A DNA stretch of 64,000 nucleotides from an archaeon (lineage in GTDB: Archaea > Nanobdellota > Nanobdellia > Pacearchaeales > GW2011-AR1): assembly GCA_009992215.1 (NCBI GenBank), contig JAACWB010000004.1, forward strand, positions 8,006 to 72,005, read 5' to 3'. Position numbers and translations under genes: made by a program. The notes beneath the pieces were generated by a model that did no database searches, was not told where the DNA came from, and saw only the letters and a program-made list of their open reading frames with translations. Shown piece by piece: positions 16,369 to 18,473 of the stretch; within the stretch, counting starts at the first letter, position 1; each line of letters starts with the position of its first letter.

Positions 16369-17124
16369 TTAAATTCCAAGGAGAATTTTATCTAATGACT
16401 TTGAAAGGTTGATGTTTTCTTTTCTTAAAGATTCTAAATTTCTGTTTTCAATTGTGTAAAAATCTTCTTTTATTTCAAGTGGAGCAAAGTCATAAATAAG
16501 TGAAGAATTATTTTTTTCTAGTACTCCTATTTGCATATTTCCTCCAGTATATTGATCTTTTTTTGATGCATTGCATAGGGAAGAATAAAAAAAATCTAAA
16601 GAATGCTTTAGAGGGATTTCAAGAAAACCATTTTCATTTTTTTTGCTTTTTAATACTTCGTCAAGAATAAATTCTTGAATAAATTCTCCGCCTGTTCCAA
16701 TCCAAGAACAAAAAATATTTTTTTCAATTATTTTTGGGTTACAAAAATTTTCTGGAATTGCTCTCGCATTAAGAGATAATTTTCCTTTCTCATTTATTGC
16801 AAAATGATAATGATTTGAATAAAAAGGTTCTTCAAATTTATCTAAAATATCAAAAATCATTCCCTTAGACAAATTTGATTCATAAATTAACTGGTCATAA
16901 TTGATTATAGTATTTATTGAATTATTCATTGAATTTGTCAATTGTCTCCCAGAATGAGAGATAAAAAAATTACTCTTTTCATTGTATAAAATCTTTTTTG
17001 CATCATAACTTTTGGCAAGAATCATATTATTTAATTGTGTTGATCTTTGTGAATCACTTGCTAACAAAATGTATTCTTTTTTAAAGTCTTTATCATATGC
17101 GTGAAGTGAAATGCCCGTTGTCAT
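16369..17124 (-). CDS. HslV/proteasome-beta-like Ntn-hydrolase paralog A
   Basis: 251 aa. Thr at position 2 (MTTGISL), the SDSQ equivalent of the G-D-G-Q motif, IGTGGEF (GSGG motif) and a C-terminal YTGGNMQIGVL (rD..SGG.i.v..i). Confidence 0.6.
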   Translation of the reverse strand: MTTGISLHAYDKDFKKEYILLASDSQRSTQLNNMILAKSYDAKKILYNEKSNFFISHSGRQLTNSMNNSINTIINYDQLIYESNLSKGMIFDILDKFEEPFYSNHYHFAINEKGKLSLNARAIPENFCNPKIIEKNIFCSWIGTGGEFIQEFILDEVLKSKKNENGFLEIPLKHSLDFFYSSLCNASKKDQYTGGNMQIGVLEKNNSSLIYDFAPLEIKEDFYTIENRNLESLRKENINLSKSLDKILLGI

Positions 17125-17125
17125 T

Positions 17126-17869
17126 TTAATTAAATATTAATTCCTCCAAAGAATTTACATTAAATGTTTGTTCTACTTTGTTTTTTTCTTTTTCACAAAG
17201 TTTAATCATTTCTCTGTAACCCAAATTTTTATTTATTTTCCCAAATTCACTAAAATTTATTTTTTTGTCTTCGGACAAAATTCCCAAATTAAAATATCCT
17301 CCTGTGTTTATGTCGCTTTTTGCTGCATAATTTAGCGCCTGCATTGATAGTTTTATTGCATCAGAGATGGGTAAAATAAAATTATTTTCATCCCTATTCA
17401 AATTGATTAGTTTTTGTTTAATCCATTTATTTATTTCTTTACTTCCATTCCCTGCAGAAAAAAATAATTCATCTTTTTGTAATCCATTTATGTCATATGC
17501 ATCCAAAGATAATTTTCCAAGATTGTTTGCAATTAGAAAGGTATTTGGTGTATCAATTTCACTTAATTTTGAATTAATATTTTTTAGTGAATTTTCTAAT
17601 TCACCAAATGAAAGATTTTTTTCATCGGTTATTTTTCTGTAATTTTCGTTAATTATAGCTGGATTTATTTTTTCATTATATAATGAATTTCCAGAATATG
17701 CAATTAAATATCTATTATCTTTAGTATTTAGAAATTTATTTATTTTTATATTTTCTTCTGGTATAAATTTTTCATCTCGATAAATGTTTGATTGTGTGTC
17801 GGCTAAAATTAAAATATATTCTTTTTTAAAATTTGGATCAAAACACTTTATTGCTAATTCACTTGTCAT
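17126..17869 (-). CDS. HslV/proteasome-beta-like Ntn-hydrolase paralog B
   Basis: 247 aa. MTSELAI..., ADTQS, GNGSKEI, NTGGYFNLGIL. Clearly homologous to the flanking paralogs. Confidence 0.6.
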   Translation of the reverse strand: MTSELAIKCFDPNFKKEYILILADTQSNIYRDEKFIPEENIKINKFLNTKDNRYLIAYSGNSLYNEKINPAIINENYRKITDEKNLSFGELENSLKNINSKLSEIDTPNTFLIANNLGKLSLDAYDINGLQKDELFFSAGNGSKEINKWIKQKLINLNRDENNFILPISDAIKLSMQALNYAAKSDINTGGYFNLGILSEDKKINFSEFGKINKNLGYREMIKLCEKEKNKVEQTFNVNSLEELIFN

Positions 17870-17870
17870 T

Positions 17871-18473
17871 TTAATTGCATAATTTTTTTAAATTTAATTC
17901 TAAGTTTGATTGCTTTTCACCGACGGCTCCAAAGGAAAAAAATCCCCCCGTAAAAGAGTCTTCATTATGTTTTGCTGCATTGTTTATTGCCATGTAACTA
18001 ATTTCAAGTAAATCTTTCATTGGCATTTTTACTATTTTATCTTTGGGTAATTCTTTTAGAACTTCTGCTATATATTCTCTTCCACTGCCAATTGTTGCCC
18101 AAGCAGGACCATAAATTATAATTTTTTTATTTCCTAAATCATCAAATTCTAAATTTTTTTTATCTGCAACAAAATAAATATTATTATTTTTATGTAAATA
18201 ATCCATCATCATTAATTGTACTTTTACTTTATGTTTATCTAAACTATCTGAAAAAAGTAATTTTTTTAATTTATTTACTTCTACTTCATCATTAATTAAA
18301 GAGGTTCCAGCTCCAGCAAATAAGTGATTTTCTAATAAATAAATTTTCTTTGTGTCTCCTTCTTTTACAATTTTCCCACCTATTCTTTTAGACGTTTGGC
18401 TATCTGAAGCGATTAACAGATACCTTTGTTTTGTATCGGTATCATATGCATTAATTCTTAGTATTCCTGTCAT
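17871..18473 (-). CDS. HslV/proteasome-beta-like Ntn-hydrolase paralog C
   Basis: 200 aa. MTGILRI..., ASDSQTS, IGSGREYI, FTGGFFSFGAV. Confidence 0.6.
   Translation of the reverse strand: MTGILRINAYDTDTKQRYLLIASDSQTSKRIGGKIVKEGDTKKIYLLENHLFAGAGTSLINDEVEVNKLKKLLFSDSLDKHKVKVQLMMMDYLHKNNNIYFVADKKNLEFDDLGNKKIIIYGPAWATIGSGREYIAEVLKELPKDKIVKMPMKDLLEISYMAINNAAKHNEDSFTGGFFSFGAVGEKQSNLELNLKKLCN

Follow-up and report, generated by a model that had tools for sequence, protein, structure and literature searches.

The DNA considered here is a 64-kb stretch of an archaeal contig, referred to throughout as the window, which is AT-rich (about 29% GC) and encodes, among other things, an archaeal ThrRS editing domain, DtdA, Elp3, L10e and a thermosome. 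The subject of this account is a set of three small tandem genes within it, gA, gB and gC, whose products are deposited at NCBI as NCN86259-61 under the source label '[archaeon]' and are propeptide-less, very divergent relatives of the proteasome beta subunit. Their neighbours at the locus are genes for a UMPH-1 nucleotidase, a GTPase and a convergently oriented Elp3. An initial annotation of this DNA had described three divergent genes in tandem at 16369-18473, each opening with Met-Thr and related to one another by about 25-30% pairwise identity, and in all of these respects it was right. The three open reading frames (ORFs) are present and intact, all on the minus strand, each opening with ATG-ACx and hence Met-Thr, and BLASTP comparison gives 29% identity for gC and gB (E 1e-16), 26% for gB and gA (E 4e-9) and 31% for gC and gA (E 5e-17). 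With expect values of this order the three genes are true paralogs and not chance resemblances. No in-frame start that would lengthen the ORF is found upstream of gA, gB or gC, Thr directly follows Met in each, and the gaps between gA and gB and between gB and gC amount to a single nucleotide (nt) apiece.

What kind of chemistry might be expected of such proteins? The segments to which the initial annotation had drawn attention, an SDSQ-type motif, a GxG-type motif and a TGG block, are all found in the three paralogs, in the forms SDSQ / ADTQ / SDSQ, GSGR / GNGS / GTGG and DSFTGG..GAV / DINTGG..GIL / DQYTGG..GVL. The positions that are invariant in a three-way alignment are Thr2, Asp24 (within S/A-D-S/T-Q), Lys43, Gly56, Gly129-x-Gly131 and Asp172-x-x-Thr175-Gly176-Gly177, of which Asp24, Lys43 and Gly56 are equivalent to Asp17, Lys33 and Gly47 in 20S beta numbering. 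For gA the predicted catalytic set consists of Thr2, Asp24, Lys43, Gly56, Gly129-Ser130-Gly131, Asp172 and Thr175-Gly176; in gB Thr2, Asp24, the Lys, Gly-Asn-Gly and Asp..Thr-Gly-Gly are all there, as they are in gC, with Gly-Thr-Gly in the loop. Because each protein keeps the full catalytic set, peptidase competence is predicted for all of them, and none of the copies looks inactivated, unlike the situation in the eukaryotic beta ring. The possibility that they are pseudogenes or inactive decoys was dismissed, given that the three ORFs are intact and every catalytic position is kept.

When the proteins are searched one at a time the scores are low. The Pfam Proteasome model PF00227 matches gA at E 0.0029 with 17.7 bits, below its gathering cut-off of 22.4, and returns nothing for gB or gC, and the archaeal beta model TIGR03634 matches gB at E 0.17 with 11.5 bits, against a cut-off of 224 bits, and returns nothing for gA or gC. 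Searches of the PDB by phmmer with single gA, gB and gC sequences were uninformative, the top match of gC being a beta subunit at E 0.13, and word-indexed homolog searches gave the self-matches together with one relative, P0002, that is 46% identical to gA. A profile of the three paralogs and P0002, run exhaustively with HMMER against 1.84 billion cluster representatives, yielded 72 proteins at E values up to 1e-3, counted as clusters at 50% identity. Nearly all of these are 200-265 residues long and align from residue 1, and most open with MTT(I/V)(I/L)G. Where a member has a named source, it is 'Candidatus Woesearchaeota archaeon' or 'Candidatus Nanoarchaeia archaeon', and most of the remainder are known from metagenome assemblies only and are absent from nr. 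To judge from the named sources, this is a family of DPANN archaea (Woesearchaeota / Nanoarchaeia). A Pedobacter locus that was matched by gC in a genome scan proved to be a false positive, a cNMP-binding-like (cyclic nucleotide monophosphate) ORF that has the string YTTGNM in common with gC. On the viral side, gA matches a phage-derived 'peptidase HslV family' profile (E 7.7e-6), and a search of the viral fold library yielded nothing beyond weaker phage HslV/proteasome-like matches.

Conservation was counted in an alignment of 54 family members. The Thr/Asp/Lys triad, which the initial annotation had left to be checked, is kept in gA, gB and gC and is close to universal in the family, with the Asp and Lys present in 54/54 and residue 2, the Thr1 equivalent, being Thr in 51/54 and Ser in 2/54. 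The equivalents of Gly47, Gly128 and Gly130 are likewise found in 54/54 each. The Ser129 position is occupied by Ser in 39 members and by Thr in 8, with Asn in gB; the Asp166 equivalent is present in 46/54, the Ser169 position holds Thr in 50/54, and the Gly170 equivalent is retained in 53/54. Two features lie outside this catalytic set. The S1-S2 hairpin is 6 residues longer family-wide and carries a (Y/F)-D-P motif (D 42/54, P 36/54), and the long forms of the protein possess a C-terminal tail of about 45-50 residues that ends in S-L-(D/E)-x-I-L-L-G-(I/V/C), a pattern that gC fits and of which gB is a variant. Another subgroup ends instead in an H-P-x-x-(R)-(D/E)-acidic motif, and the tail-less short forms comprise gA, P0002, P0014, P0026, P0042 and P0057. 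Such end motifs might serve as docking peptides in contacts between rings or with partners.

It is with profiles that the affinity of the family becomes apparent. A four-sequence profile run against the PDB ranks beta subunits first, and the 54-member profile gives 220 matches at E <1; the 60 best of these (E 1.4e-11 to 2.8e-8) are without exception 20S beta subunits. In these alignments the first residue of mature beta2 chains lies opposite Thr2 of the profile, and the columns for Asp17, Lys33, Gly47, Gly-Ser-Gly and Asp166..Ser169-Gly170 are in register with the PDB beta subunits. Sub-profiles restricted to the gC type (A5) and to the gB type (A7) match beta subunits only, at E 1.3e-3 and, at best, E 5e-7. 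In the opposite direction, PF00227 is matched by 23/54 members at E up to 0.01 (best 1e-9), TIGR03634 by 26/54 (best E 1.4e-12), the bacterial beta model by 4/54 and the HslV NCBIfam model by 0/54. Judged by these sequence comparisons, gA, gB and gC are remote members of the T1 superfamily that are recognisable by profile only.

The predicted structure of gA adds to this picture. An AlphaFold2 (AF2) model built from the 54-sequence alignment has a predicted local distance difference test score (pLDDT) of 93.1 and a predicted template modelling score (pTM) of 0.89; a model from a four-sequence alignment, with a pLDDT of 47, was discarded. The accepted model contains S1-S11 and H1-H4 in canonical order, including both H1 and H2, and ends in beta strands without a C-terminal helix H5. 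About 5 residues separate H2 from the next strand, and there is no two-helix insertion at S3/S4; in the sequence alignment the pore-loop region of gB and gC exceeds that of gA by only 7-12 residues. The top 50 Foldseek matches of the model are all 20S beta subunits, and structure comparison gives figures of 15-18.4 for 20S beta subunits, 16.4 for a designed Anbu, 16.4 for the Sulfolobus acidocaldarius beta subunit, 13.5 for HslV, 13.4 for Mycobacterium tuberculosis PrcB, 13.3 for BPH, about 12-13.6 for alpha subunits, 10.7 for connectase and no more than 11 for other N-terminal nucleophile (Ntn) hydrolases. On these figures the fold of gA is that of a proteasome beta subunit, with 20S beta and Anbu as nearer neighbours than HslV or BPH. 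The profile searches, which the initial annotation had put forward for checking along with structure prediction, return nothing other than proteasome beta subunits, and the gA model has the fold of such a subunit. Its view of a lineage-specific, propeptide-less Ntn hydrolase family of the proteasome-beta/HslV type is upheld, with the refinement that the nearest relatives are 20S beta subunits rather than HslV or BPH.

How, then, does the family compare with the known proteasome homologs? With HslV (ClpQ) it shares a propeptide-less Met-Thr-Thr start and a stand-alone protomer of the beta type, but its members are 25-75 residues longer and archaeal rather than bacterial, HslU, the AAA+ partner whose gene as a rule adjoins that of HslV, is absent from the window, and HslV is not the closest structural neighbour of gA. 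In bacteria the Anbu gene lies in a conserved operon alongside ATP-grasp, transglutaminase-like and Alpha-E genes, and neighbours of this type are absent at the gA-gB-gC locus. By analogy, both Anbu and BPH (PMC5777263) resemble the family in life-style, in that they have no propeptide, a full active site and no identifiable AAA+ partner. Both are bacterial, however. BPH, a tetradecameric double ring, carries a long acidic pore loop following H2 where gA has its short connection, and Anbu has a long coiled-coil H5 (PMC8665760) that is missing from gA. Connectase differs from gA in having no H1/H2, in having the two-helix insertion at S3/S4 and in being a monomeric ligase. A survey of the superfamily has recognised at least 22 uncharacterised proteasome-homolog subfamilies with conserved active sites, no propeptide and no conserved context or AAA+ partner (PMC8665760, Fuchs, Alva & Lupas 2021), and the present family fits the same picture, including its detection by profiles only. 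In that survey 'other archaea' carry WPH, PHI, ACC and Psm-beta, and DPANN, Woesearchaeota and Nanoarchaeota go unmentioned (PMC8665760). The long helical insertion that PHI has at the pore-loop site after H1/H2 is absent from the gA model, and gA also lacks the C-terminal coiled-coil H5 predicted for WPH and ACC (representatives WP_040339656.1 and WP_161937350.1; PMC8665760). None of the later papers found describes a DPANN-specific proteasome homolog. The family thus has the appearance of a new subfamily of known proteasome homologs, with some residual uncertainty in that it could fall inside a named cluster, for which WPH and ACC are the candidates.

The comparison with connectase bears on whether the proteins are general proteases at all. 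They might instead be specialised Ntn enzymes, for instance a sequence-specific transpeptidase/ligase of the connectase kind or an amidase, possibly monomeric. Connectase shows that the fold can be a monomeric ligase (PMC7980362; PMC8665760), the lengthened S1-S2 hairpin with its (Y/F)-D-P and the C-terminal tail motifs could confer specificity, and some members of the family are fused to, or lie beside, helical-repeat or TPR modules. Yet the ring-contact helices H1 and H2 that connectase is without are present in the gA model, which is also free of the S3/S4 insertion, and we regard a specialised role of this sort as very unlikely.

The genomic setting provides a further line of evidence. As the initial annotation had stated, no HslU, PAN/Cdc48 or alpha-subunit gene adjoins the three genes, and a Pfam scan across the 64 kb reveals no proteasome alpha, PAN, Cdc48 or HslU among window ORFs of at least 110 residues; nor does any of them adjoin the family genes in 10 other loci. 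A local hidden Markov model search of the window and of the fetched loci identified no further family copy or beta-like ORF. Farther afield among DPANN genomes, the family gene stands by itself, with unrelated neighbours and without an adjacent AAA+ gene. In a related clade, where the GTPase and Elp3 are 73-77% identical to those of the window, the family always occupies the slot convergent with Elp3, as seen when window positions 16369-20271 are compared with loci L001, L006, L013, L016 and L017. The number of copies in this slot ranges from 1 to 3. There is a single long form in L006 (P0008), in L013 (P0007) and on the contig of P0010; L001 has a gA-type short form and then a second copy; in L016 the long form P0036, extended at its C-terminus by helical repeats, is followed by a gA-type short form; L015 encodes a P0036-like protein, then a TPR protein, then a family member of the gC type; and the window has the three copies gA-gB-gC.

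The closest counterparts of the three window proteins are P0002 for gA (46% identity), P0007 for gB (39%) and P0008 for gC (35%). Identity between the family genes and their best counterparts is thus only 35-46%, compared with 73-77% for the flanking genes, which means that the pace of evolution is markedly higher in the family than in its neighbours. Such evolution and turnover are unusually fast for a putative housekeeping protease. Each window paralog is nearer to a counterpart in another genome than to the other window copies, a pattern that identifies the array as old and subject to differential loss; the neighbour-joining tree is star-like and was used for such nearest-neighbour statements only. 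A recent tandem duplication in this genome can be discounted, as the copies diverge mutually as much as they do from members in other genomes, and so can an origin in a defence system, with zero PADLOC hits and housekeeping genes on both flanks.

Some members carry additional modules. The helical-repeat C-terminal extension, of about 110 residues, is seen in P0036 (within L016 616-2263) and in a 55%-identical partial protein (within L015 1-2296), P0043 (358 residues) has a weak HEAT_2 match, and the TPR protein of L015, which is 330 residues long, is encoded between two family genes with overlapping stop and start codons. These helical-repeat and TPR modules may be adaptor or substrate-recruitment modules.

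Could the three proteins nonetheless be genuine, if highly divergent, 20S beta subunits that sit between alpha rings encoded elsewhere? Several beta paralogs occur in Sulfolobus, Pyrococcus and eukaryotes. The family has the S1-S11/H1-H4 core of 20S beta (PF00227, TIGR03634, MEROPS T1), with Thr1/Asp17/Lys33/Gly47/Gly128-x-Gly130/Asp166/(Ser to Thr)169/Gly170 in register, 20S beta is the best sequence match of its profile (E about 1e-11), and both the nearest sequence model, TIGR03634, and the nearest structures are of this kind. DPANN proteins are, moreover, fast-evolving in general, and a preprint on complete Nanobdellota genomes names just 'a proteasome subunit' in the single-copy core, alongside CDC48 ATPases (10.64898/2026.05.13.725050). 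The differences are nevertheless extensive. Scores of the three proteins lie far under the TIGR03634 cut-off, the propeptide that canonical beta subunits shed autocatalytically upon assembly is absent, with Thr standing right after Met in all but three of the 54 aligned members, the S1-S2 hairpin has its extra residues with the conserved D-P, Thr replaces Ser169, and the long forms have the tail ending in L-(D/E)-x-I-L-L-G-(I/V/C). The family is also rare, at 72 clusters among 1.84 billion, where an essential core subunit in a widespread phylum should be far commoner, it varies in copy number from 1 to 3 among close relatives, its rate of evolution is about double that of the housekeeping genes on either side, and in none of about 12 loci is there an alpha gene near the family gene. 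A divergent 20S beta subunit, the main alternative identity for these proteins, is therefore an unlikely one, and the preprint suggests that a canonical proteasome system may coexist with the family.

The layout of the locus (Table 1) suggests how the genes might be expressed. A TATA-like box precedes gA, and a TTTA[AT]A[AT]A box is found at -29 to -31 in 10/11 family loci from other genomes; from its position the gA-gB-gC transcript would be leaderless or near-leaderless. Both internal junctions read AATTAA-A-ATGACAA, and these identical 1-nt junctions suggest co-transcription and, probably, translational coupling, so that gA-gB-gC would constitute a single operon. Upstream of the TATA-like box there is an inverted repeat that represents the sole CACT-N4-8-AGTG match in the window and a spacing variant of a palindrome, GTTACT-N4-AGTAAC, seen upstream of family genes elsewhere. 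In five independent genomes that palindrome, with the core YACT-N4-AGTR, precedes the start codon of the family gene by 44-60 nt, although the core is rare. It has 2 exact matches in the window, with 1.5 expected, and both sit in promoter regions, one of them about 76 nt upstream of the second of two TrmB-family regulators, which may be autoregulated given the palindrome in its own upstream region. The family palindrome resembles the TGM palindrome of the TrmB family, TATCAC-N5-GTGATA, and it suggests a dedicated regulon.

Table 1. Coordinates of the genes, candidate signals and other features discussed in the text; positions refer to the window unless another locus is named.
Feature	Position	Strand	Remarks
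gA	17871..18473	-	200 aa; NCN86261.1, GW932_00340, NCBI 'hypothetical protein'; short form without C-terminal tail
gB	17126..17869	-	247 aa; NCN86260.1, GW932_00335; long form, tail of ~45 aa ending SLEELIFN
gC	16369..17124	-	251 aa; NCN86259.1, GW932_00330; long form, tail ending SLDKILLGI
TATA-like box TTTAAATA	18495..18502	-	starts 29 nt before gA ATG; putative promoter element
gA/gB junction	~17860-17885		same as gB/gC junction
gB/gC junction AATTAAAATGACAA	17115..17140	-	TAA, 1 nt, ATG
T-rich tract TTTAGTTTATTTTTG	16346..16360	-	right after gC stop, before convergent Elp3; possible archaeal terminator
Inverted repeat TTGTCAC-N12-GTGACAA (core CACT-N7-AGTG)	18512..18537	.	upstream of TATA-like box; candidate operator
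YACT-N4-AGTR palindrome	33322-33333		upstream of TrmB-family regulator
YACT-N4-AGTR palindrome	54205-54216		abuts ATG of unannotated ORF
TrmB-family regulator	52-777
TrmB-family regulator	33404-34210
Unannotated ORF	54217-54957
Family palindrome, L008	7942-7953
Family palindrome, L010	7943-7954
Family palindrome, L013	565-576
Family palindrome, L016	623-634
Family palindrome, L018	9941-9952
N-acetylmuramoyl-L-alanine amidase	4932-5786		Amidase_3, E 2.6e-18
C-5 cytosine DNA methylase	8764-9774		E 4e-107
HpaII endonuclease	9771-10841		E 1e-125; 4-nt overlap with methylase
DisA-type diadenylate cyclase (DAC) domain protein	24071-24643
Bacterial Ig-like domain protein	54954-56681		575 aa
Matrixin/astacin-like zinc metalloprotease	63123-63884		with CARDB domain

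Another reading is that gA, gB and gC assemble obligatorily into one hetero-oligomeric ring, as a prokaryotic counterpart of the differentiated beta ring of eukaryotes. The array itself would then be the functional unit, and its copies would not be redundant. The tight operon, with its 1-nt gaps and identical junctions, favours co-translation, the copies are deeply diverged (26-31% identity) with every active site retained, and the tail-less gA type is seen only beside a long form, in 3/3 cases (the window, L001 and L016). Set against this, the close relatives with a GTPase and Elp3 at 73-77% have a lone long form in three instances (P0008, P0007 and P0010), from which it follows that long forms evidently work without partners; outside the Elp3-slot clade the gene is solitary, and the make-up of the array varies between genomes, from gA-gB-gC to an extended long form with a gA type and to a long form, TPR protein and gC type. 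An obligate three-part ring is accordingly improbable. Co-assembly of the paralogs may occur, but for the long forms it is probably not obligatory.

The interpretation that we think probable, while well short of certain, places gA, gB and gC, transcribed together, in a small DPANN family of fast-evolving, propeptide-less Thr1 peptidases, which would be activated by Met removal and function as alpha-independent oligomers. In this scheme methionine aminopeptidase would cut off Met1 to leave Thr2 as the free N-terminal nucleophile, Asp24 and Lys43 would complete the triad, and Gly56 would give the oxyanion hole. Positioning of the N-terminus would fall to the Gly-(Ser/Asn/Thr)-Gly loop together with Asp172..Thr175-Gly176 (Ser129, Asp166, Ser169 and Gly170 in the 20S beta subunit). 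The proteins would act as stand-alone oligomers that require no alpha subunit, and without an adjacent dedicated AAA+ gene, and the three-gene array would be one state of an Elp3-side locus in which the copy number runs from 1 to 3. Paralogy, homology, fold, residue conservation, operon layout, distribution and synteny are observed directly in the data; Met removal, proteolytic activity, the oligomeric state and physiological substrates are what we infer along these lines. A precedent for the first step is offered by BPH, also propeptide-less, for which mass spectrometry showed that the start Met is removed and Thr1 exposed (PMC5777263).

Several considerations weigh against this interpretation. 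BPH itself, with a perfect active site, is inert on standard substrates (PMC5777263), and for that reason an intact triad is no proof of protease activity; in the present case proteolytic activity is a prediction from sequence and structure, and ring formation is argued purely by analogy. Taken individually, each of gA, gB and gC fails the Pfam gathering threshold. The structural model covers gA, and the assignment of gB and gC follows from sequence homology. Finally, the gene search took in the 64-kb window, and an alpha ring or a Cdc48/PAN partner may be encoded elsewhere in the genome, for which the CDC48 and proteasome subunit of the Nanobdellota preprint leave room.

Other genes in the window deserve brief mention. 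An HpaII-type restriction-modification pair is made up of a DNA methylase and an endonuclease. An amidase of the peptidoglycan-cleaving Amidase_3 group is encoded in what is an archaeal genome, and could act on bacterial cell walls. The DAC domain protein implies c-di-AMP (cyclic di-AMP) signalling in this small genome, and the CARDB metalloprotease and the Ig-like-domain protein are probably cell-surface or secreted.

What does the finding mean for the organism and for the family? An ambitious extension of the preferred interpretation would see here a DPANN-specific 'mini-proteasome' without alpha rings or a dedicated unfoldase, tandem-duplicated in one lineage to give a mixed ring of three active subunits, in independent parallel to the eukaryotic beta ring, and with a role at the symbiont-host interface. 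We hold this to be decidedly improbable, but if it were true the fast evolution, the flux in copy number and the conserved operator would reflect, for example, the processing of scavenged host proteins or peptides. Viewed more soberly, the family is a small, fast-evolving archaeal branch of an already large and diverse class and not a new type of machine, and in practical terms it matters only modestly as long as its activity and assembly are predictions. Three 'hypothetical proteins' (NCN86259-61) and some 70 metagenomic protein clusters nevertheless gain a fold and a testable chemistry, and the catalogue of proteasome homologs is extended into the DPANN archaea. The slot beside Elp3, filled by one, two or three copies, with or without tails, helical-repeat extensions and a TPR neighbour, amounts to a natural experiment, and the locus could show a route from homomeric to heteromeric proteasome-like rings.

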